Part shown: positions 7,221-58,829 of the stretch, in pieces
How the letters are laid out: each line of letters starts with the position of its first letter
How positions within the stretch are numbered: position 1 is the stretch's first letter
UHGV virus genome: UHGV-1351569
Direction: 5' to 3' (one strand)
Length of the DNA: 64,000 nt
DNA from: a virus
The notes under the pieces: generated by a model
Seen by the model: only the letters and a program-made list of their open reading frames with translations
Databases searched by the model: none
What the model was told of the DNA's origin: nothing
Position numbers and translations under genes: made by a program

Positions 7221-7742
7221 ATGTTTATTTCAAGTGAAAGCGGTTTAATTCGTGTTGAATTTAAAAATGACATCTTTCTTATTCAAGGAGATGATATTAT
7301 TAAAATGAGTTATGACGAAATCAAGAAAATTTGTAATGCTCTTGAAAATCATGGAAAGGTGAATGCTGTCATTGATATTGGCGATTTATGGGTGACACTT
7401 TATGAAGTATCCGAAGGATTTAACATTGAAGATGAAAACAACATCTTAGCTATTGATAAAAGAAGCGATTTGTTTGATGTGTTAAAAGTTTATGAACAGT
7501 CAAACGGTGGAAGAAAAGCTGCATTGATTTATCAAAAACCACATTCATGCGGAACTGCTTCAATCATTTCCAATATTGAAGGCGAAGTTGATACTTATAT
7601 GTGTGTTTTAAAAGCTGGTGGTGACCGTCATCCGGATTTTATTTCTATTCGTCAAAACAATGGAGAAATTTCATTATCAAAATCAGAAGCTGAAGCTATG
7701 ATTAAGTATTTAACAACCGTTACGCCTTCAATGAAAGGATAA
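7221..7742 (+). CDS. hypothetical protein, 173 aa
   Basis: gaggaaat RBS. Confidence 0.6.
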   Translation: MFISSESGLIRVEFKNDIFLIQGDDIIKMSYDEIKKICNALENHGKVNAVIDIGDLWVTLYEVSEGFNIEDENNILAIDKRSDLFDVLKVYEQSNGGRKAALIYQKPHSCGTASIISNIEGEVDTYMCVLKAGGDRHPDFISIRQNNGEISLSKSEAEAMIKYLTTVTPSMKG

Positions 7743-7744
7743 TT

Positions 7745-8206
7745 ATGATTATTAATGAAAACTCTTGGCACTATAAATTATTCAAATTGTTTAACGATGA
7801 ATGGCAACGACCTAAGACACTATGCGCATATTTTTGGTCTATTGCCATTCCTACATTTTTCGTTTCTATTTTTGGATGTGCTATACTCGTAGGGCTAACA
7901 ATTATTTGTGCAGAAAGCCTACAACGTTGGCTTATTTTTGGTAGTTTATGGACTTTGCTTCCATCAGCATTTATACTTGCGATTTTGGTTGTTTTACTTA
8001 TTATCGGTTCATTTGTTATTCCTGCACATTTGCGTGAAAAATATAAAGATTATAAATGGAAAAAGGATTATGCTTTACACGTAGAAAATATTGATAGGGC
8101 GTATAAAGGTTTACCTCCTATTCAACCCAAGAAATCGATTATCGTTGAATTTTTAAAAGCTCGTAAAGCTAAAGTATGTCCTGTTATTGAATATAAGGCT
8201 GAATGA
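7745..8206 (+). CDS. hypothetical membrane protein, 153 aa
   Basis: Two long hydrophobic segments. Confidence 0.6.
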   Translation: MIINENSWHYKLFKLFNDEWQRPKTLCAYFWSIAIPTFFVSIFGCAILVGLTIICAESLQRWLIFGSLWTLLPSAFILAILVVLLIIGSFVIPAHLREKYKDYKWKKDYALHVENIDRAYKGLPPIQPKKSIIVEFLKARKAKVCPVIEYKAE

Positions 8207-16747: not shown

Positions 16748-16918
16748 ATGATTTACGATATTAATGTAGCAAGAGCTCCGTCAATGGTTACTATTCCAGC
16801 TGAAGAATTAGATCGTCTTCAGAAAATTGAAGAGCTTCTTTGGGAAATTGAATCTGATTTGCCATCAGGACTAGAATCCTGGATTGATTATGAAGAACTT
16901 AATAAATTGCGAAATTAA
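16748..16918 (+). CDS. hypothetical protein, 56 aa
   Basis: ATG at 16748 just after upstream stop. Confidence 0.4.
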   Translation: MIYDINVARAPSMVTIPAEELDRLQKIEELLWEIESDLPSGLESWIDYEELNKLRN

Positions 16919-16928
16919 TTGGTGAAAA

Positions 16929-17249
16929 ATGAATATTGAAAATAAATTAGATGTTGATGCAGTTCTGAGCGAAATCATCGAAGACCATGATGCATTTTCA
17001 GAAAATTATGATTTCGATTTTTCGGATTATCTTAAACCTGTCGAAATAGAAGACTGGGTGCAAGATGGTAAATGCCAATATCGTCAGTGTGTTTATTTTA
17101 GTCCAAAACATAACGTTCATGTGTCTGTAAATGAATCTCGTTCAGGTTCTTACCATTCTGACTGGTATTATGCAGTTCCGACTGTTGAACTAGTCGAGCC
17201 CCGTGAACGTGTAGTAACTCAGACAGTACGAGAATGGATTACGCTATAA
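16929..17249 (+). CDS. hypothetical acidic protein, 106 aa
   Basis: ORF from track. Confidence 0.5.
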   Translation: MNIENKLDVDAVLSEIIEDHDAFSENYDFDFSDYLKPVEIEDWVQDGKCQYRQCVYFSPKHNVHVSVNESRSGSYHSDWYYAVPTVELVEPRERVVTQTVREWITL

Positions 17250-17354
17250 AACCTTGGTGGGCGGCTAGATGGGAAACAGTAGAGCCAGAGCCGGAAGAAC
17301 CGGTTTACACTGATGAAGAAACAGTATATAATGAACCAACAATAAATGACTTAA

Positions 17355-17819
17355 TTGATATGGAGATGGGACATGATTACAGTAGATAAGTGGTTTAGAA
17401 TTAATCGTGCTGATAAAGGGCTGTGTAATTACTGGCCGGAACTTAGTGCAGGTACTGTCTTTAAAGTTCGTGAACTTGCAAAAGAATGCGAAGATGATAT
17501 AGAACCTGATACTGGAATTATTGAAATTGAACTTTCTGATGGAAAGATTATTAACATCTATGATAAGCCAATTACATATTGGTGCTTGTGGAATACCGAA
17601 TCAGTAGAAAATGGCGAAATTGAAGAAGTTGTAGAACGAGTTGATCAAGCTATTCATAAACCTAAAGCCGCTTTTCAAGGTGAACGCATTTCATATGCAT
17701 TATCTAAATCGGCGTTGAAAAAAGATATTGATGATTACGAAGGAAATTTAATGCAAGCCGCGGCAGAATATATTGAATGGCTTGAAACTCAAATTTCTTT
17801 TTCTGACCGAGCGTTTTAA
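17355..17819 (+). CDS. hypothetical protein, 154 aa (at the position where T4 carries pin)
   Basis: ORF from track; assignment to pin is positional only. Confidence 0.5.
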   Translation: MIWRWDMITVDKWFRINRADKGLCNYWPELSAGTVFKVRELAKECEDDIEPDTGIIEIELSDGKIINIYDKPITYWCLWNTESVENGEIEEVVERVDQAIHKPKAAFQGERISYALSKSALKKDIDDYEGNLMQAAAEYIEWLETQISFSDRAF

Positions 17820-18036: not shown

Positions 18037-18510
18037 ATGTTATTGACTGGCAAATTATATAAAGAAGAAAAACAGAAATTTTATGATGCGCAAAACGGTA
18101 AATGCTTAATTTGCCAACGAGAACTAAATCCTGATGTTCAAGCTAATCACCTTGACCATGACCATGAATTAAATGGACCAAAAGCAGGAAAGGTACGTGG
18201 ATTGCTCTGTAATCTCTGTAATGCTGCAGAAGGTCAAATGAAGCATAAATTCAATCGTTCTGGCTTAAAGGGACAAGGTGTTGATTATCTTGAATGGCTA
18301 GAAAATTTACTTACTTATTTAAAATCCGATTACACCCAAAATAATATTCACCCTAACTTCGTTGGAGATAAATCAAAGGAATTTTCTCGTTTAGGAAAAG
18401 AGGAAATGATGGCTGAGATGCTTCAAAGAGGATTTGAATATAATGAATCTGACACTAAAACACAATTAATAGCTTCATTTAAGAAGCAGCTTAGAAAGAG
18501 TTTAAAATGA
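18037..18510 (+). CDS. 49: endonuclease VII (Holliday-junction resolvase)
   Basis: 157 aa; CxxC...HLDHDH...CNLCN zinc/His-Cys box; matches recalled T4 gp49. Confidence 0.92.
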   Translation: MLLTGKLYKEEKQKFYDAQNGKCLICQRELNPDVQANHLDHDHELNGPKAGKVRGLLCNLCNAAEGQMKHKFNRSGLKGQGVDYLEWLENLLTYLKSDYTQNNIHPNFVGDKSKEFSRLGKEEMMAEMLQRGFEYNESDTKTQLIASFKKQLRKSLK

Positions 18511-19044
18511 CAATTGAAAAAGAAATTGAAGGATTGATTCATAAAACTAATAAAGACCTTTTAAACGAGAATGCTAATAAAGATTCTCGTGTTTTTCCAA
18601 CTCAACGGGACCTTATGGCTGGTATTGTGTCTAAACACATTGCCAAAAATATGGTCCCGTCTTTTATTATGAAAGCGCATGAAAGCGGAATTATCCATTT
18701 CCATGATATTGATTATTCCCCTGCTCTTCCATTTACTAATTGCTGTTTAGTAGATTTAAAAGGAATGCTTGAAAACGGATTTAAGCTCGGTAATGCACAG
18801 ATTGAAACTCCTAAATCAATCGGCGTTGCTACTGCAATTATGGCACAAATTACTGCACAGGTTGCTTCCCACCAATATGGCGGAACGACTTTTGCGAATG
18901 TAGATAAAGTACTTTCTCCTTATGTTAAACGCACCTATGCAAAACATATTGAGGATGCAGAAAAATGGCAAATCGCTGATGCGTTGAATTATGCTCAATC
19001 CAAAACAGAAAAAGATGTCTATGATGCATTCCAGGCGTATGAGT
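18507..19044 (+). CDS. nrdD: anaerobic ribonucleotide reductase NrdD, exon 1
   Basis: Exon ends after gagT where P1 pairing augagu/gcucau with intron IGS is visible. Confidence 0.85.
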
Positions 19045-19254
19045 TAATTTAATTCAGGCTCATGTAAAACCGGTCTAAACGGGGAACCTCTCTAGTAGAC
19101 AATCCCGTGCTAAATGTTCTTTTGAACTAAATGCCTAACGACTAACCGTGATGAATGTAGCGGTGTAGAATAGAAGCTAATGCTATTCGAAACGGCCGGC
19201 ATCGAAAGATGAAGATATAGTCTAATCTGCATGGCGACATGCAGCAGTCATCTT

Positions 19255-19262
19255 GTATAAAT
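19255..19262 (+). promoter_or_regulatory. T4 late promoter core (TATAAATA) inside intron, upstream of endonuclease ORF
   Basis: Exact TATAAATA 30 nt upstream of the ORF ATG. Confidence 0.55.
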
Positions 19263-19292
19263 AAGATTATCTTATGAATACGAGGTGAAACA

Positions 19293-20063
19293 ATGAAATG
19301 GATAAAAAGACGTTGTACTAAAATAAAAGATAAAGACGCATTTACATACTTAGTTAAGTTTTCTAATGGCGACATTTATATCGGTTATAAAAAAGTTAGA
19401 ACAATTAAAAACAAGCCCACAAACTGGAAAACTTACACAACGTCATCTAAGTATATAAATGAACGCTTAAAAACTGATACACCTACTAAATGGATAATTT
19501 TAAAAACATTTGATAGTTATAAAGACGCATTAAAACATGAAGAAGAGGTCATACGTAAATATTTTTATAGCAAAAAATGTTTAAATAAATCCATAGGCGG
19601 TAAAAAGTTTTATAAGCATCCGGATACTGAAGAACATATTCAAAAATTAAGAGATGCTCATAAGGGTAAAGTGTTATCCGAATCTCATAAAAACAATATA
19701 AAATCTTCTGTAGCTGAATATTATGCTAAAAACGGAAGATCTAAGGAACATGTGCAAAATAATATCAATAGTCGAAAAAGTAAAAAACAAGTATCGATAA
19801 AGCTTAAAAATAAAACTTTTAGAAGTTTTAAAAAAGCGGCGGAATATTTAAATTGCACTGAAAGTGAAGTCGAAACTCATCCTCTTGTTTTGAGTATTAA
19901 GACTACTATTCATAAAGTTCCTGAATATGTGGTTGTTGACGGTATTAAGTATACGTCTTATATAGAAGCAGCTAAAGCGCTAAATTTTCATCCTAGCACT
20001 ATAAAAGAACGTTGCGTATCTATGGACTATCCAAATTTTGTTGTTTCATATAAACGGGCATGA
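19293..20063 (+). CDS. intron-encoded homing endonuclease (I-TevII-like)
   Basis: 256 aa ORF wholly inside the intron; size and position match T4 I-TevII. Confidence 0.8.
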   Translation: MKWIKRRCTKIKDKDAFTYLVKFSNGDIYIGYKKVRTIKNKPTNWKTYTTSSKYINERLKTDTPTKWIILKTFDSYKDALKHEEEVIRKYFYSKKCLNKSIGGKKFYKHPDTEEHIQKLRDAHKGKVLSESHKNNIKSSVAEYYAKNGRSKEHVQNNINSRKSKKQVSIKLKNKTFRSFKKAAEYLNCTESEVETHPLVLSIKTTIHKVPEYVVVDGIKYTSYIEAAKALNFHPSTIKERCVSMDYPNFVVSYKRA

Positions 20064-20077
20064 ATTTGCGACTCATG

Positions 20078-21369
20078 CCGAATATAATGATGAAGTAAAT
20101 ACACTTTTCAGCTCTAATGGACAAACGCCTTTTGTAACAATTACGTTTGGTACGGGAACTGACTGGACTGAACGAATGATTCAGAAAGCAATTCTGAAAA
20201 ATCGTATTAAAGGTCTTGGTCGCGATGGGATAACTCCTATTTTCCCTAAGCTTGTTATGTTCGTTGAAGAAGGTGTTAATCTTTATAAAGATGACCCGAA
20301 CTATGATATTAAACAGCTTGCTCTAGAGTGCGCAAGCAAAAGAATGTATCCTGACATCATTTCGGCTAAGAACAATAAAGCTATCACCGGTTCATCTATT
20401 CCTGTTTCTCCAATGGGTTGCCGCAGTTTCTTGAGCGTATGGAAAGATTCGACTGGTAATGAAATTCTTGATGGACGTAATAATCTTGGCGTTGTAACAC
20501 TGAATCTTCCTCGCATCGCGTTAGATTCTTATATTGGAACACAGTTCAATGAACAGAAATTTGCCGAATTGTTCAATGAACGAATGGATTTATGTTTTGA
20601 AGCTTTGATGTGTAGAATTAGTTCCTTAAAAGGAGTTAAAGCGACTGTTGCTCCTATTCTTTATCAAGAAGGTGCATTCGGGGTTCGTCTTAAACCAGAT
20701 GACGACATAATTGAGTTATTTAAAAACGGTAGAAGTTCAGTGTCTTTGGGATACATTGGTATTCACGAATTGAATATTCTTGTCGGTCGTGATATTGGGC
20801 AGGAAATTTTGACTAAAATGAATGCTCATCTTAAGCAGTGGACTGAAAGAACCGGTTTTGCTTTTAGTTTGTATTCTACACCTGCTGAAAACCTGTGCTA
20901 TCGCTTCTGTAAACTTGATACCGAAAAATATGGAAGTGTAAAGGATGTTACTGATAAAGGCTGGTACACTAACAGTTTCCATGTTTCAGTAGAAGAAAAT
21001 ATCACTCCGTTTGAAAAGATTTCTCGTGAAGCGCCATATCATTTCATTGCGACAGGTGGTCACATTTCTTATGTTGAACTTCCTGATATGAAAAATAACT
21101 TAAAAGGTCTTGAGGCTGTATGGGATTATGCTGCACAACATTTAGATTATTTTGGCGTTAACATGCCAGTAGATAAATGTTTTACGTGTGGAAGTACCCA
21201 TGAAATGACTCCTACTGAAAACGGGTTTGTTTGTTCTATTTGTGGAGAAACTGATCCTAAAAAGATGAACACAATAAGAAGAACTTGTGGTTATTTGGGA
21301 AATCCGAACGAACGTGGATTTAATCTTGGCAAAAATAAAGAAATCATGCATAGGGTTAAACACCAATGA
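20078..21369 (+). CDS. nrdD: anaerobic ribonucleotide reductase NrdD, exon 2
   Basis: In-frame continuation; C-terminal RRTCGYLG glycyl-radical motif; joined product about 609 aa. Confidence 0.85.
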
Positions 21370-21836
21370 ATTATGATAGATTTTATCCTTGCGATTTTGT
21401 GAATGGCCCTGGATGCAGGGTCGTTCTTTTCGTTACAGGTTGTTTGCATAAATGTGAAGGGTGTTATAATAAATCAACATGGAATGCTAGAAATGGCGTT
21501 CCATTCACTGGTGAAACACTAGAACAATTAATTGAATGTTTGAATAATGATTATATAGAAGGATTAACTATAACTGGAGGTGACCCTCTTTATCCTGATA
21601 ACCGAGATGTTATTCATTGCATTGTTCAAACAGTAAAAAATCTTTATCCGAATAAAAGCATTTGGTTGTGGACCGGATATAAGTTTGAGGATATTAAACA
21701 ACTAGAAATGCTTAAATATGTTGATGTTATTATTGATGGGAAGTATGAGAAAAATCTTCCGACCAAAAAGCTGTGGCGAGGATCAGATAATCAGCGACTT
21801 TGGTCAAATACCGATGGGGTGTGGAAACATGATTAA
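21366..21836 (+). CDS. nrdG: anaerobic RNR activating enzyme (radical SAM)
   Basis: 156 aa; Cys cluster CRVVLFVTGCLHKCEGC; ATGA overlap with nrdD. Confidence 0.88.
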   Translation: MNYDRFYPCDFVNGPGCRVVLFVTGCLHKCEGCYNKSTWNARNGVPFTGETLEQLIECLNNDYIEGLTITGGDPLYPDNRDVIHCIVQTVKNLYPNKSIWLWTGYKFEDIKQLEMLKYVDVIIDGKYEKNLPTKKLWRGSDNQRLWSNTDGVWKHD

Positions 21837-25847: not shown

Positions 25848-25871
25848 AAACCAAAACAATGAGGATATTAA

Positions 25872-27074
25872 ATGAAAGTATGCATTTTTATGGCTCGAGG
25901 TCTTGAAGGTTGCGGTGTAACTAAATTTTCTCTTGAGCAACGTGATTGGTTTATTAAAAACGGTCATGAAGTAACTTTAGTTTATGCTAAAGATAAATCA
26001 TTTACCCGTAATTGCGCGCATGATTATAAATCATTTTCAATTCCGGTTTTATTGGCAAAAGAATACGATAAAACACTTAAGCTGGTAAATGATTGTGATA
26101 TTCTAATTATCAATTCAGTTCCTGCTACTTCAGTCGAAGAAGACACTATTAATAACTATAAAAAAATTATTGATAACATTAAACCTTCGGTTCGTGTTGT
26201 AGTTTATCAACATGACCATTCTTCTCTTTCTTTGCGTCGAAATTTGGGATTAGAAGAAACTGTTCGCCGAGCTGATGTTATTTTTAGTCATTCTGATAAT
26301 GGTGATTTTAATAAAGTTCTGATGAAAGAATGGTATCCAGAAACTGTTTCACTGTTTGATGATATTGAAGAAGCACCGACCGTATACAACTTTCAGCCTC
26401 CTATGGATATTGCGAAGGTTCGATCAACCTACTGGAAAGATGTTTCTGAAATTAACATGAATATCAACCGTTGGATTGGTCGTACGACTACATGGAAAGG
26501 TTTTTATCAGATGTTTGATTTTCACGAAAAACATCTTAAACCTGCAGGACTAAGTACTATTATGGAAGGTCTGGAACGTTCTCCAGCGTTCATTCCTATT
26601 AAAGAAAAAGGAATTCCATACGAGTATTATCGTCTTCATCAAGTAGACCAAATTAAAATTGCTCCTAATTTGCCAACGCAAATTCTTGACCGTTATGTAA
26701 ATAGCGAAATGCTTGAACGCATGAGTAAATCCGGATTTGGTTATCAGCTGAGTAAATTAGATAAAAAATATCTACAACGTTCTTTAGAATATACTCATCT
26801 CGAGCTTGGTGCATGTGGAACAATTCCAGTATTTTGGAAATCTACTGGCGAAAATTTAAAATTCCGTGTTGATAATACTCCGTTAATTTCTCATGATAGC
26901 GGTATCGTTTGGTTTGATGAAAATGACATGGAATCAACATTTGAGCGTATTAAAGAACTGTCATCTGACCGAGCTCTTTATGACCGTGAACGCGAAAAAG
27001 CTTATGAATTTTTGTATCAGCATCAAGATTCAAGCTTCTGCTTTAAAGAACAGTTTGACATTATTACAAAATAA
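25872..27074 (+). CDS. agt: DNA alpha-glucosyltransferase
   Basis: 400 aa; near-identical to recalled T4 alpha-gt along its length. Confidence 0.92.
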   Translation: MKVCIFMARGLEGCGVTKFSLEQRDWFIKNGHEVTLVYAKDKSFTRNCAHDYKSFSIPVLLAKEYDKTLKLVNDCDILIINSVPATSVEEDTINNYKKIIDNIKPSVRVVVYQHDHSSLSLRRNLGLEETVRRADVIFSHSDNGDFNKVLMKEWYPETVSLFDDIEEAPTVYNFQPPMDIAKVRSTYWKDVSEINMNINRWIGRTTTWKGFYQMFDFHEKHLKPAGLSTIMEGLERSPAFIPIKEKGIPYEYYRLHQVDQIKIAPNLPTQILDRYVNSEMLERMSKSGFGYQLSKLDKKYLQRSLEYTHLELGACGTIPVFWKSTGENLKFRVDNTPLISHDSGIVWFDENDMESTFERIKELSSDRALYDREREKAYEFLYQHQDSSFCFKEQFDIITK

Positions 27075-37957: not shown

Positions 37958-38698
37958 ATGATTAGTGACTCTATGACAGTTGAAGAAATCCGTCTTCATT
38001 TGGGACTTGCATTAAAAGAAAAAGATTTCGTAGTTGATAAAACTGGCGTTAAAACTATTGAAATTATTGGCGCATCATTTGTAGCAGATGAACCGTTTAT
38101 TTTTGGCGCTCTTAATGATGAATACATTCAGCGTGAACTTGAATGGTATAAATCTAAAAGCTTGTTCGTTAAAGATATTCCAGGTGAAACACCGAAGATT
38201 TGGCAACAAGTAGCATCTTCTAAAGGTGAAATTAACTCGAATTATGGTTGGGCTATCTGGTCAGAAGATAACTATGCCCAGTATGATATGTGTTTAGCTG
38301 AACTTGGTCAAAATCCTGATTCTCGACGTGGTATCATGATTTATACTCGTCCATCCATGCAATTTGACTACAATAAAGATGGCATGTCAGATTTCATGTG
38401 TACTAATACAGTACAGTACCTGATTCGTGATAAGAAAGTCAATGCAGTAGTAAGCATGCGCTCAAATGATGTGGTCTTCGGATTCCGTAATGATTATGCA
38501 TGGCAAAAATACGTATTAGATAAATTAGTATCTGATTTGAATGCAGGCGATTCAACTCGTCAGTATAAAGCAGGTTCTATTATATGGAATGTTGGAAGTC
38601 TTCATGTATATTCTCGTCATTTTTACTTGGTTGATCATTGGTGGAATACTGGCGAAACTCATATTGTGAAAAAAGATTATAACGGTGAGTGGAAATGA
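37958..38698 (+). CDS. 42: dCMP hydroxymethylase gp42
   Basis: 246 aa; thymidylate-synthase-like fold; size and position as in T4. Confidence 0.9.
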   Translation: MISDSMTVEEIRLHLGLALKEKDFVVDKTGVKTIEIIGASFVADEPFIFGALNDEYIQRELEWYKSKSLFVKDIPGETPKIWQQVASSKGEINSNYGWAIWSEDNYAQYDMCLAELGQNPDSRRGIMIYTRPSMQFDYNKDGMSDFMCTNTVQYLIRDKKVNAVVSMRSNDVVFGFRNDYAWQKYVLDKLVSDLNAGDSTRQYKAGSIIWNVGSLHVYSRHFYLVDHWWNTGETHIVKKDYNGEWK

Positions 38699-39537
38699 TT
38701 CAATTCGTAATTCCAAGCTATCAACGCGTAGGGGCAGTTTCTGCCCTTGATATGTTTCCGACTGATTATGAACCTCATATTGTAGTACGTGAACACGAAG
38801 AAAAAGCTTATTATGACGCTTACGGGTCTAGGGCTAAAATTATAACTATTCCTGATGATGTAAACGGAATTGCCGGTACTCGTAAAGCAATTACTGATAT
38901 GTATGCAGGTCAACGAATCTGGATGATTGACGATGATACTACTATTCGTATGAGTTCAATGCGAAAAAGAGATGATCGTCGTTGTGTAGATAAAGTCAAT
39001 CAATTGACTCGTGAACAGTTCTATGAATTGATTCAATATGTTGAGGATGCCATGGATTGTGGGTATTATCATGGCCATGCTCGTCTACCTATTTTTAAAA
39101 TTACTTCATCTTGGGGTAATTATCGTGAAAATTCATATGGATTCACGAATACATGGTATGACCTCGGAAAACTTACTACAGAACAAATTGGGTATGGAAA
39201 AATTGATTTATGCGAAGATATGTATGCATTTCTCAATTTAATTAATCAAGGTTATCCGCATTTGGCCTTGTTCAAATATCTGGTTGTATCTGGAAAAGCA
39301 CAAGCTCCTGGCGGGTGTAGTTCAATTCGTAGTAATTCTAAACATAATAGAGCGCTTGAGCAAATCAATAGAGAGTTTCCAGAGCAAGCTCGTTGGAAAA
39401 CTTCTAATATTGAAAAACGAAAATCGTTGGGTGAAGAAGACGAGCCATTAAAGGTTCTTCGTATGTGTGTTTCGCGTAAAGAAAAATCAGAAGCATTTCA
39501 TAAGTTTAATGCTATTCATCCAATAGCAGTTGATTAA
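38695..39537 (+). CDS. putative DNA glycosyltransferase (T2/T6 beta-alpha-gt-like), 280 aa
   Basis: Occupies the 42-uvsX slot where T4 has beta-gt but does not resemble T4 beta-gt; ATG 38695 overlaps gene 42 stop. Confidence 0.5.
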   Translation: MIQFVIPSYQRVGAVSALDMFPTDYEPHIVVREHEEKAYYDAYGSRAKIITIPDDVNGIAGTRKAITDMYAGQRIWMIDDDTTIRMSSMRKRDDRRCVDKVNQLTREQFYELIQYVEDAMDCGYYHGHARLPIFKITSSWGNYRENSYGFTNTWYDLGKLTTEQIGYGKIDLCEDMYAFLNLINQGYPHLALFKYLVVSGKAQAPGGCSSIRSNSKHNRALEQINREFPEQARWKTSNIEKRKSLGEEDEPLKVLRMCVSRKEKSEAFHKFNAIHPIAVD

Positions 39538-43434: not shown

Positions 43435-43791
43435 ATGTATAGTTCTGAATTTTCATATTTAAAAATGGAAAAAATTTCATACGATTTTATAGATGAAAAG
43501 GTTTATTATAGTTTCCATGAACCACGTTTTAACAGTGAAGTCGGTTTTATTGTAGTAAAAGATAATTTCATTTTAAAAATATATTCGGCATTAAAGGATT
43601 TTCACTACGAAAATATTAACCTAAAATTTGATAAAGAAAACGTTCATAATTGTGCAGTAACAATTACAGGAAATAAAGGTACATGTGTTATGCTATCTGA
43701 TGAAATTAATGATTTGTTAAATGATGTAGAAAAGGTTGCTGTTCCATCAATTGATGACCAAATTTTTAACGCTTTTATGAATAGAGGTTAA
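43435..43791 (+). CDS. adfA: 61.2-position protein (anti-DarT factor AdfA in T4-like phages)
   Basis: 118 aa at the 61.2 slot between sp and 61; identity rests on synteny and size. Confidence 0.55.
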   Translation: MYSSEFSYLKMEKISYDFIDEKVYYSFHEPRFNSEVGFIVVKDNFILKIYSALKDFHYENINLKFDKENVHNCAVTITGNKGTCVMLSDEINDLLNDVEKVAVPSIDDQIFNAFMNRG

Positions 43792-44988: not shown

Positions 44989-45185
44989 ATTAACCCAACC
45001 AAAGCAAATGCTAAATCTACGAATGTATCAAGAGTAACTACTGGAATATTAATACCATGCGCAATAGCTACTGGCGATAAAACAAAATTCCAAAGTAAAA
45101 TTCCTATCATAGCAGAAATAGTAAAAGCTATACGTTTTTTATTACCTTTGATGGCATTAACAAGTGCCATTAATTTTTGTACCAT
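44985..45185 (-). CDS. small hydrophobic protein, 66 aa, opposite strand
   Basis: Only ORF in the 61-56 gap; AAGGAGGA RBS 5 nt before ATG on minus strand; two hydrophobic segments. Confidence 0.55.
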   Translation of the reverse strand: MVQKLMALVNAIKGNKKRIAFTISAMIGILLWNFVLSPVAIAHGINIPVVTLDTFVDLAFALVGLI

Positions 45186-45196
45186 ATGTCCTCCTT

Positions 45197-45222
45197 ATTG
45201 CTTTATATATTTATTGTATAAT
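45197..45222 (+). promoter_or_regulatory. MotA-dependent middle promoter upstream of gene 56
   Basis: TGCTTTA 45199-45205, 11-bp spacer, TATAAT 45217-45222. Confidence 0.55.
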
Positions 45223-45256
45223 TAATCTACTAACCCATGAATTGAAAGGAAAAATA

Positions 45257-45775
45257 ATGGCTTACTTTAACGAATGTTCACAACTGATTGAAGGCGCTGA
45301 TAAAGCTCAAAATGAATATTGGGATATTCTCGGCGATGAAAAAGACCCACTACAGGTTATGCTTGATATGCAGAAATCTCTGCAGGTTCGTTTAGCTAAA
45401 GATAAACCTGAATATAACCGTCATCCTGATGATTTGGCTACCGCAGGTGAAGTTGTTGATTGGCTGCGCAATCAGAAAGATTATATTGACGATGAATTCC
45501 GTGAACTTCTGACTTCTCTTGGTGGTATGAGTAATGGTGAAAAAGACGCATCTGCTGTATGGAAACCTTGGAAGTCGCAGCATGGTGAACGTCGTGAAAC
45601 TCTGATTACTGATTTGTCTCCGCAAGACCAGTTAGAAATTAAATTTGAAATGATTGATATTCTTCATTTCGTTCTGAACATGTTCCAAGGTCTCGGTCTT
45701 ACGGCTGAAGAAATCTTTAAACTTTATTATCTAAAAAATGCTGAAAACTTCGCTCGTCAAGACAGAGGTTATTAA
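45257..45775 (+). CDS. 56: dCTPase/dUTPase gp56
   Basis: 172 aa from ATG 45257; close match to recalled T4 gp56. Confidence 0.9.
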   Translation: MAYFNECSQLIEGADKAQNEYWDILGDEKDPLQVMLDMQKSLQVRLAKDKPEYNRHPDDLATAGEVVDWLRNQKDYIDDEFRELLTSLGGMSNGEKDASAVWKPWKSQHGERRETLITDLSPQDQLEIKFEMIDILHFVLNMFQGLGLTAEEIFKLYYLKNAENFARQDRGY

Positions 45776-45819
45776 TGGCTCGTTTATTTAAACGACGACT
45801 TAAAAGCCGCGAGAATTAT

Positions 45820-45827
45820 TATAAATA
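45820..45827 (+). promoter_or_regulatory. T4 late promoter core (TATAAATA) upstream of soc
   Basis: Exact TATAAATA about 30 nt upstream of soc ATG. Confidence 0.6.
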
Positions 45828-45857
45828 ATCATGTAATTTAAATAAAAGGAGAATTAC

Positions 45858-46103
45858 ATGGCTAGTACTCGCGGTTATGTTAATATCAAAACGTTTGAGC
45901 AGAAATTAGATGGAAATAAGAAAATTGAAGGAAAGGAAATTTCTGTAGCTTTCCCTCTTTATTCTGACGTTCACAAAATTTCTGGCGCTCATTACCAGAC
46001 ATTCCCTTCAGAAAAAGCAGCATATACTACTGTATATGAAGAAAATCAACGCGCTGCGTGGATTGCTGCAAACGAAGATTTGTGGAAAGTAACTGGTGAA
46101 TAA
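45858..46103 (+). CDS. soc: small outer capsid protein Soc
   Basis: 81 aa; near-identical to recalled T4 Soc. Confidence 0.93.
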   Translation: MASTRGYVNIKTFEQKLDGNKKIEGKEISVAFPLYSDVHKISGAHYQTFPSEKAAYTTVYEENQRAAWIAANEDLWKVTGE

Positions 46104-57011: not shown

Positions 57012-58829
57012 ATGATTAAGAATGAAATTAAAATTCTGAGCGATATTGAACATATCAAAAAGCGTAGCGGCATGTACATTGGTTCTTCTGCTAATGAAAT
57101 GCATGAGCGCTTTCTGTTTGGTAAATGGGAAAGTGTTCAGTATGTACCTGGTCTTGTTAAGCTTATTGATGAAATTATCGATAACTCAGTAGATGAAGGT
57201 ATTCGTACTAAGTTTAAATTCGCGAATAAAATTAATGTTACTATTAAAAACAATCAAGTAACAGTTGAAGATAACGGTCGTGGTATTCCACAAGCGATGG
57301 TTAAAACACCTACTGGTGAAGAAATTCCTGGTCCTGTTGCCGCCTGGACTATTCCAAAAGCAGGTGGTAACTTTGGTGATGATAAAGAACGCGTCACTGG
57401 CGGTATGAACGGTGTTGGTTCTAGTTTAACTAACATTTTTTCTGTGATGTTTGTCGGTGAAACTGGTGATGGTCAAAATAATATTGTAGTTCGTTGTTCA
57501 AATGGCATGGAAAATAAATCGTGGGAAGATATTCCTGGAAAATGGAAAGGAACTCGCGTTACTTTCATTCCTGATTTTATGTCATTTGAAACTAATGAGC
57601 TATCTCAGGTTTATCTTGACATTACACTAGATCGTCTCCAGACACTTGCAGTAGTTTATCCTGATATTCAATTTACCTTTAATGGTAAAAAGGTTCAGGG
57701 TAATTTTAAGAAATATGCACGTCAATATGATGAGCATGCTATCGTTCAAGAACAAGAAAACTGTTCTATTGCGGTCGGTCGTTCACCTGATGGTTTTCGT
57801 CAATTAACGTACGTCAATAACATTCATACTAAGAATGGTGGCCATCATATTGACTGTGTTATGGATGATATTTGTGAAGACCTTATTCCACAAATCAAAC
57901 GCAAGTTCAAAATTGATGTAACTAAAGCACGTGTTAAAGAATGTTTGACTATCGTTATGTTTGTTCGTGATATGAAAAACATGCGATTTGATTCTCAAAC
58001 TAAAGAGCGTTTGACTTCTCCATTTGGTGAAATTCGCAGTCATATTCAGCTTGATGCTAAAAAGATTTCACGTGCTATTCTAAATAATGAAGCAATTTTA
58101 ATGCCAATTATTGAAGCTGCCTTGGCTCGTAAATTGGCGGCAGAAAAAGCAGCAGAAACTAAAGCAGCTAAAAAGGCTTCTAAAGCTAAGGTTCATAAAC
58201 ATATTAAAGCGAATCTTTGTGGTAAAGATGCTGACACTACTCTTTTCTTGACTGAGGGTGATTCTGCTATCGGATATCTTATTGATGTTCGTGATAAAGA
58301 ACTTCATGGTGGTTATCCATTACGTGGTAAAGTTCTCAACAGTTGGGGTATGTCATATGCTGATATGCTTAAAAACAAAGAACTGTTTGATATTTGCGCA
58401 ATCACTGGATTAGTTCTTGGTGAAAAAGCCGAAAACTTGAATTATCATAATATCGCAATTATGACCGATGCTGACCACGATGGTCTAGGAAGCATTTATC
58501 CTTCTCTGCTCGGATTTTTTAGTAATTGGCCAGAATTGTTTGAACAAGGAAGAATTCGCTTTGTCAAAACTCCTGTAATCATCGCTCAGGTCGGTAAAAA
58601 ACAAGAATGGTTTTATACAGTCGCTGAATATGAGAGTGCCAAAGATGCTCTACCTAAACATAGCATCCGTTATATTAAAGGACTTGGCTCTTTGGAAAAA
58701 TCTGAATATCGTGAGATGATTCAAAACCCAGTATATGATGTTGTTAAACTTCCTGAGAACTGGAAAGAGCTTTTTGAAATGCTCATGGGAGATAATGCTG
58801 ACCTTCGTAAAGAATGGATGAGCCAGTAG
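57012..58829 (+). CDS. 39: DNA topoisomerase II ATPase subunit gp39, unsplit form
   Basis: 605 aa from ATG 57012 (gagga RBS); GHKL ATPase N-domain; C-terminal ~130 aa equals recalled T4 gp60 C-terminus, so one ORF covers T4 39 plus 60. Confidence 0.9.
   Translation: MIKNEIKILSDIEHIKKRSGMYIGSSANEMHERFLFGKWESVQYVPGLVKLIDEIIDNSVDEGIRTKFKFANKINVTIKNNQVTVEDNGRGIPQAMVKTPTGEEIPGPVAAWTIPKAGGNFGDDKERVTGGMNGVGSSLTNIFSVMFVGETGDGQNNIVVRCSNGMENKSWEDIPGKWKGTRVTFIPDFMSFETNELSQVYLDITLDRLQTLAVVYPDIQFTFNGKKVQGNFKKYARQYDEHAIVQEQENCSIAVGRSPDGFRQLTYVNNIHTKNGGHHIDCVMDDICEDLIPQIKRKFKIDVTKARVKECLTIVMFVRDMKNMRFDSQTKERLTSPFGEIRSHIQLDAKKISRAILNNEAILMPIIEAALARKLAAEKAAETKAAKKASKAKVHKHIKANLCGKDADTTLFLTEGDSAIGYLIDVRDKELHGGYPLRGKVLNSWGMSYADMLKNKELFDICAITGLVLGEKAENLNYHNIAIMTDADHDGLGSIYPSLLGFFSNWPELFEQGRIRFVKTPVIIAQVGKKQEWFYTVAEYESAKDALPKHSIRYIKGLGSLEKSEYREMIQNPVYDVVKLPENWKELFEMLMGDNADLRKEWMSQ

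Follow-up and report, generated by a model that had tools for sequence, protein, structure and literature searches.

A putative mosaic group I intron with an I-TevII-like endonuclease gene at the T4 nrdD site of a T4-like phage

The anaerobic ribonucleotide reductase gene, nrdD, of the virus genome UHGV-1351569 is interrupted at the site used by the sunY/nrdD intron of T4, and we conclude with good confidence that the interruption is a self-splicing IA2 group I intron, spanning positions 19045 to 20089, that represents a separate, mosaic allele carrying a homologue of the homing endonuclease I-TevII. Positions throughout are those of the window, that is, the whole 64,000-nt stretch of DNA that was analysed (Table 1). 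By local BLAST, the window is colinear with T4 (map positions ~64 kb down to 0) and its closest public genomes reach only ~95-97% identity over 18 kb, and thus, on sequence grounds, it is a T4-like Tequatrovirus distinct from T4 itself. Joined together, the two exons encode an NrdD of 605 aa, with 601 of the 605 residues identical to T4 NrdD and nucleotide identities to T4 of 96.5% for exon 1 and 94.7% for exon 2. The Pfam NRDD match is likewise divided, with model positions 1-141 falling in exon 1 (E = 1.4e-40) and the remainder of the match in exon 2.

Rfam assigned the element to RF00028 (group I) with a score of 75.4 bits, above the gathering threshold of 50 (E = 2.5e-17, span 19013-19244, model positions 1-253), the sole Rfam match within the 64-kb window; against the same model, the T4 nrdD intron scores 105.3 bits. 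Together with the split NRDD match, this upholds the class proposed by a first-pass annotation made from the sequence alone, namely a group I intron with an endonuclease ORF in nrdD. The span of the Rfam match was also considered as a pair of intron ends and rejected: its P1/P2 part sits on the exon and it stops before the ORF, and it is therefore taken as evidence of class only, not of splice sites.

Structurally, helices P1, P3-P9 (with P7.1 and P7.2) and P9.2 were drawn from the window sequence, P3 and P7 crossing as a pseudoknot, and were compared across an alignment of seven introns with their ORF-bearing loops removed: the window intron, the nrdD and td introns of T4, the nrdD introns of EPFV3, KKP_3264 and Vibrio phage F88, and the terminase intron of Aeromonas phage 2L372X. 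Standard pairs occupy 94.4% of helix cells, and 28 of the 60 pairs show compensatory changes on both sides; in the controls, sliding one strand by 1-3 columns left 36-43% paired, and none of 500 shuffles reached the observed values. The hallmark of subgroup IA2, an extra P7.1 and P7.2 between P7 and the 3' strand of P3, is present, and P2 is absent from the helix model of the window intron. As modelled, then, the ribozyme is a complete IA2 type without P2, as in T4, and modelling of P1-P9 bears out the first-pass assignment. So does the pairing of the exon-1 end (AUGAGU) with the intron guide (GCUCAU), with its U-G pair at the 5' splice site, which was recovered as originally described. Both the 5' site and the insertion point are as in T4, with exon 1 ending ...TATGAGT and exon 2 beginning ATGAAG.

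This architecture bears on whether nrdD is spliced at all, as the gene could instead yield two polypeptides or be a pseudogene, in the manner of nrdA in phage Aeh1 ('genes in pieces'). Two separate nrdD CDSs are indeed annotated in nearly all of the public records with the window-type allele that we inspected, the second often beginning within the endonuclease ORF, with the spliced join absent and the endonuclease labelled 'homing endonuclease' or 'hypothetical protein', and nrdD is dispensable under aerobic laboratory growth. Against this, the group I core is complete and strongly covarying, no convincing start codon or RBS for exon 2 is present at the junction (the listed ORF, with its TTG start, begins within the endonuclease gene), and the exons are under evident constraint, as their near identity to T4 at the amino-acid level attests. 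We therefore regard the absence of splicing as extremely improbable, and the proper annotation for nrdD here is one spliced gene, join(18507..19044, 20090..21369).

The 3' boundary of the intron was set by comparing exon junctions. In intronless T2 and RB3, the junction reads ...TATGAATATGAAGTA (in a longer reading, GCTTATGAATATGAAGTAAAT) and encodes AYEYEVN, and the annotated spliced nrdD of T4 gives the same peptide (...AYEYEVNTLF). Within the window, this peptide is reproduced only by joining U19044 to A20090, i.e., by splicing after G20089, with ...GCGTATGAGT ligated to ATGAAGTAAAT (also written as ...CAGGCGTATGAGT ligated to ATGAAGTAAATACAC), and the intron therefore runs from 19045 to 20089. 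The first-pass annotation had described, in effect, T4's own nrdD intron of 1033 nt, spliced at G20077. Splicing there keeps the reading frame, as was claimed; both G20077 and G20089 have AU before and GAA after them, P9.0 and P10 fit either site, and the CCGAAU that follows G20077 could form a short P10 with AAUUCAG. However, ligation at G20077 (...GAGT to CCGAATATAATGATGAAG) would put SEYND in the place of Y, lengthening the protein by four residues; SEYND is missing from the NrdD of T4, T2 and RB3, and G20077 is itself base-paired in the 3' strand of P9.2, a helix in which 5 of 7 pairs covary. The choice of G20089 thus rests on the intronless alleles, the T4 junction and P9.2, and the junction first proposed is off by 12 nt; that annotation had itself named a different exon junction as an outcome that would contradict it. 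The 1033 nt given there corresponds to the T4 intron, this one being 1045 nt long. The implied identity with the T4 intron also fails on divergence: although the exons are 95-96% identical to those of T4, identity is 72% in the intron core and 63% (nucleotides) in the ORF, and the endonucleases share 55.6% of their amino acids. In T4, moreover, mobC lies between nrdD and nrdG, and it is not found there in the window. Taken together, we consider it very unlikely that this is T4's own intron spliced at G20077.

Under the preferred boundaries, 19045-20089, P9.0 is possible between AU 20087-20088 and AU 19225-19226, and a P10 candidate joins the intron to the start of exon 2 (Table 1). The layout of the 3' end has parallels, since in T4 nrdD, T4 td, EPFV3 and KKP_3264 a P9.2-type hairpin gives way to a (U)GAACAUAAUG-type tail of ~10-12 nt that leads to the terminal G. 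Judging from the structure, the guide would pair with the end of exon 1, and the P3-P9 core would then catalyse two steps, a guanosine-initiated cut after U19044 and the joining of the exons after G20089, to give the 605-aa NrdD. At the closing pair of P9.2, a window-specific C20079 (T in five other carriers of the allele) turns a G-U into a G-C pair.

Table 1 Features of the nrdD region, modelled intron helices and gene 39, in window coordinates
Feature	Position	Strand	Remarks
gp49 endonuclease VII	18037-18510	+	upstream neighbour of nrdD
nrdD, split	18507-21369	+	group I intron inside
nrdD exon 1	18507-19044	+	179 codons + 1 nt; ends at splice-site U19044
Group I intron, IA2-type (predicted)	19045-20089	+	1045 nt; Rfam, junction comparison, helix model
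P1	19039-19044 AUGAGU / 19058-19063 GCUCAU	+	U19044-G19058 wobble at 5' splice site
P10 candidate	UUCA 19052-19055 / exon-2 UGAA 20091-20094	+	possible pairing
P3	19070-75/19194-99	+	5/6 pairs covary
P4	19079-84/19103-08	+	catalytic core 19070-19244
P5	19089-91/19097-99	+	catalytic core
P6	19109-10/19133-34	+	catalytic core
P6a	19116-19/19124-27	+	catalytic core
P7	19140-44/19218-22	+	invariant across the seven-intron alignment
P7.1	19145-48/19161-64	+	3/4 pairs covary
P7.2	19168-73/19183-88	+	4/6 pairs covary
P8	19200-03/19208-11	+	catalytic core
P9	19227-33/19238-44	+	catalytic core
RBS-hiding hairpin (predicted)	stem 19248-19258 / 19278-19288	+	11 bp; inner 6-bp hairpin
T4-type late promoter motif TATAAATA	19256-19263	+	29 nt upstream of ATG
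Homing-site-like (operator-like) CTTATGAATACGAGGTGAA	19271-19289	+	contains Shine-Dalgarno GAGG 19282-19285
Homing endonuclease gene, GIY-YIG + NUMOD1	19293-20063	+	256 aa, I-TevII homologue
P9.2 GGCAUGA...UCAUGCC	20057-20063 / 20073-20079	+	5/7 pairs covary; overlaps ORF stop codon
3' tail GAAUAUAAUG	20080-20089	+	ends in terminal G20089
nrdD exon 2	20090-21369	+	Pfam NRDD positions 145-562 + Gly_radical
nrdG	21366-21836	+	directly after nrdD, without mobC between
Gene 39, topoisomerase II large subunit	57012-58829		one uninterrupted 605-aa ORF; GyrB/Toprim domains

The region between P9 and the exon-2 boundary may fold unlike its counterpart in T4. There, the ORF loop is closed by P9.1 (CUGUUUAU/AUAAACGG, −7.2 kcal/mol), whereas a search of the window for this long-range pairing gave a best duplex of only −2.7 kcal/mol, and the helix is not conserved. 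When the ORF was deleted and the intron refolded, the strand at 19248-19258, which masks the RBS, instead took the 3' tail and the beginning of exon 2 as its partner. The P9.1 region (19245-19262 with 20036-20095) is identical in all copies of the window-type allele; by these fold predictions, the 3' domain may differ from that of T4.

Ahead of the ORF, the late promoter motif reported by the first-pass annotation is present, at a position homologous to that in T4, where it aligns with TATAAAT of the T4 intron. By composition, 10 matches to TATAAATA would be expected in the 64-kb window and four were found; as a sequence match its occurrence is unremarkable by chance, and its weight comes from the T4-homologous position. 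The motif starts at the final base of the 5' strand of the RBS-hiding hairpin, a structure with an MFE of −17.8 kcal/mol (z = −4.55; none of 200 shuffled sequences folded as stably) that is homologous to the CCUCGUAU/AUACGAGG hairpin of T4, from which it differs by an 11-nt insertion in the loop. Given this placement, a late transcript would expose the RBS. The control mechanism formed by late promoter and RBS hairpin is documented for T4 (PMC2988022), and by homology the 11-bp hairpin would bury the Shine-Dalgarno sequence of the ORF in early nrdD pre-mRNA, while late transcripts, beginning a few bases past TATAAATA and thus without the 5' strand of the hairpin, would be translatable. The Shine-Dalgarno sequence itself lies within CTTATGAATACGAGGTGAA, 16 of whose 19 positions agree with CTTATGAATATGAAGTAAA, the junction in intronless T2. 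This likeness to the homing site is also reported for T4, where it has been read as a relic of invasion by the endonuclease gene (Loizos et al., cited in PMC3984707; PMC2988022) and also as a possible autorepression operator (PMC3984707; PMC2988022).

The ORF that follows is the 256-aa frame noted at first pass. Its product matches SegE_GIY-YIG (PF19835) with 25.6 bits, barely above the cut-off of 25, and NUMOD1 with 25.1 bits (cut-off 22.8), and it aligns with I-TevII over its full length (256 versus 258 aa, E = 7e-85), the columns FTY...YIG, E83 and N98 being conserved. A search of solved structures with the endonuclease sequence gave no match at E up to 1. By tblastn, the window-type protein is found at ≥95% identity in 45 phage records, and in ~30 of the records it is at least 98.8% identical; a further ~20 full-length matches at ~55% are of the T4 type (T4 stocks, RB55, RB59, PST and fPS-2), and U5 holds a partial T4-type match. 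The window ORF has two private residues, V35 and V242, which are F and I elsewhere.

We also weighed a splicing ribozyme combined with an endonuclease that has lost, or is losing, its activity. The intron would then persist and move only by ordinary recombination or with the help of other nucleases, as with the defunct I-TevIII and mobE of T4. The marginal Pfam score of the GIY-YIG domain would fit such decay, as would frameshifted copies of the ORF in two related records (tblastn) and the two private changes in the window, and a defunct intron endonuclease with trans-homing is on record (PMC2790892). Nevertheless, the ORF is intact and full length by comparison with I-TevII, its product is almost unchanged across the ~30 records mentioned above, and the promoter, the RBS hairpin and the homing-site-like operator are all retained; nor does the window hold a free-standing nuclease gene next to nrdD, as mobC is absent and nrdG follows directly. 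An endonuclease in decay thus seems unlikely to us, with the proviso that the ORF could be so alike among phages because it spread recently and not through selection for activity.

At the population level, the exon-1 end was found in ~650 records, of which ~45 carry the window-type endonuclease; set against these and the ~20 T4-type matches, most records are therefore intronless. Five phages with the window-type allele, two of them classified as Mosigvirus, have a core identical at 248 of 248 positions and an ORF that is 99.2-99.4% identical, while their gp49 is 81-97% and their nrdD exons are 89-97% identical. The element is thus more conserved than its surroundings (99-100% where the flanks are 81-97%), and the stretches of perfect exon identity around the intron are short, 19-25 nt on the upstream side and 13-55 nt on the downstream side. 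Because the intron is more alike than its flanks, the identical exon tracts are short and the intron is polymorphic for presence and absence, the sequence pattern, as indirect evidence, indicates recent spread and is what recent homing, with co-conversion of short tracts, would be expected to leave. From these population data, we suggest that the GIY-YIG enzyme would cut intronless nrdD in co-infecting phages, and that repair would copy the intron, plus short exon tracts, into the cut allele.

Evolutionarily, the intron shares a site and a layout with the T4 nrdD (sunY)/I-TevII element, and much less of its sequence. Common to both are the insertion site, the P1 guide GCUCAU, the absence of P2, the P7.1/P7.2 extension, an ORF located downstream of the core and running into P9.2, and, ahead of that ORF, the TATAAATA motif, the RBS-hiding hairpin and the homing-site-like sequence. 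Alignment of the two introns accordingly sustained the placement and architecture expected from the first-pass annotation, though with a diverged sequence. P3, P6a, P7.1, P7.2, P8 and P9.2 differ in sequence with pairing kept, as in P6a (GUUC/GAAC in the window versus CAGC/GCUG in T4), P7.1 (ACCG/CGGU versus UCCC/GGGA) and P9.2, where GGCAUGA...UCAUGCC is equivalent to GUAGAG...CUCUAC of T4. The longest exact word in common with the T4 nrdD intron core is 19 nt and lies in the RBS region (19273-19291). With respect to descent from the T4 intron, then, the site is the same and identity to the T4 intron is below the level of the exons.

Other parts of the core have closer relatives elsewhere. 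Positions 19074-19115, from the end of P3 to P6, are identical in the T4 td intron, and the identity extends over 71 nt (19074-19144, from the end of P3 via P6a to the 5' strand of P7) in a td intron without ORF from Tequatrovirus CJY920, and the window also resembles td in its 3' tail, ...AUAAUG. The td intron differs in its host gene, P1, guide and the stretch from P7.1 to P8; it also possesses a P2, and its ORF (I-TevI) is located in P6a. A second segment, 40 nt spanning J6/7, P7 and P7.1 (19129-19168), is identical in the nrdD intron of the Vequintavirus EPFV3. This intron and those in nrdD of Justusliebigvirus KKP_3264 and Vibrio phage F88 share the guide GCUCAU with P1 kept, the overall IA2 architecture and the P9.2-plus-tail layout. 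They reside, however, in phages of unrelated genera, and their exon-1 end at the junction is AUGGGU, unlike AUGAGU in the window; with an EPFV3 exon 1 that is also much longer (390 aa), the EPFV3-type insertion site appears, from these sequences, to be different. The ORF of EPFV3 (annotated as winged-helix) and that of F88 (annotated as HNH) lie in P6a, and KKP_3264 is without an ORF.

This pattern in the window core fits module exchange between related phage introns, as judged from shared sequence blocks. Such exchange of intron modules was reportedly shown experimentally for T4 by Bryk and Belfort in 1990. Tentatively, the data can be taken further: we regard it as possible, rather than probable, that two old allelic intron/endonuclease lineages compete for one nrdD site of T-even phages, with that of the window apparently the commoner in natural isolates, and that its ribozyme is a shuffled IA2 type whose I-TevII-like enzyme (56% identity) may differ from that of T4 in recognition and cleavage, as may the 3' fold. 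The shuffled modules would be a td-type P3-P6a, a Vequintavirus-type P7-P7.1, and an nrdD-type P1 and ORF region. No description of a second nrdD intron allele was found in the literature searched; Sandegren and Sjoberg 2004 (J Biol Chem) may hold one.

Within the window, the intron ORF is the sole homing endonuclease gene found in the 64 kb. The first-pass annotation had considered two other T4 homing-endonuclease loci unoccupied, and they are: gene 39 is a single ORF, and comparison with T4 shows that the window lacks mobA, 60.1 and the segment of gene 60 that includes the 50-nt translational bypass, and that no segF lies in the 82-nt spacer between the end of gene 56 (45775) and the start of soc (45858). 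Likewise absent from the window are mobB (near 25856-25881), mobC (nrdD/nrdG junction, 21366), mobD and segA, and a scan of the ORFs in window segments without T4 homology yielded no endonuclease domains. Several of these loci differ from T4 in other ways. The 56-soc spacer holds a copy of TATAAATA at 45820, and gene 56 (region 45164-46103) is only ~75% identical to T4, with neighbours at ~94-96%; at 45196-45217, the T4 dam methyltransferase gene (T4 16846-17625) is without a counterpart, ~900 bp of T4 being missing. A single 280-aa ORF at 38695-39537, matching Pfam TAGT (TET-associated glycosyltransferase, E = 1.2e-9), takes the place of T4 beta-glucosyltransferase and segA. At the mobD position (7221-8206), the window has genes for a putative transcription factor resembling y05I (173 aa) and for a 153-aa product of hydrophobic appearance that gave no Pfam match. 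A 118-aa ORF stands in place of the T4 61.2 region (43435-43791), and its match to Pfam AdfA (anti-DarT factor A, E = 1.8e-8) is confined to the C-terminal part of that family.

The allele is an uncharacterised addition to the T-even nrdD intron/I-TevII family, a known kind of element and no new category. It is already present in dozens of public phage genomes, where it is usually mis-annotated. It shares site and architecture with the classic T4 sunY/I-TevII element but has other helices and an enzyme of only 56% identity. As a natural companion to that element, it offers a ready comparison for 3' splice-site choice, for the function of P9.1 and P9.2 and for target recognition by GIY-YIG enzymes, and it illustrates clearly how phage introns exchange modules.
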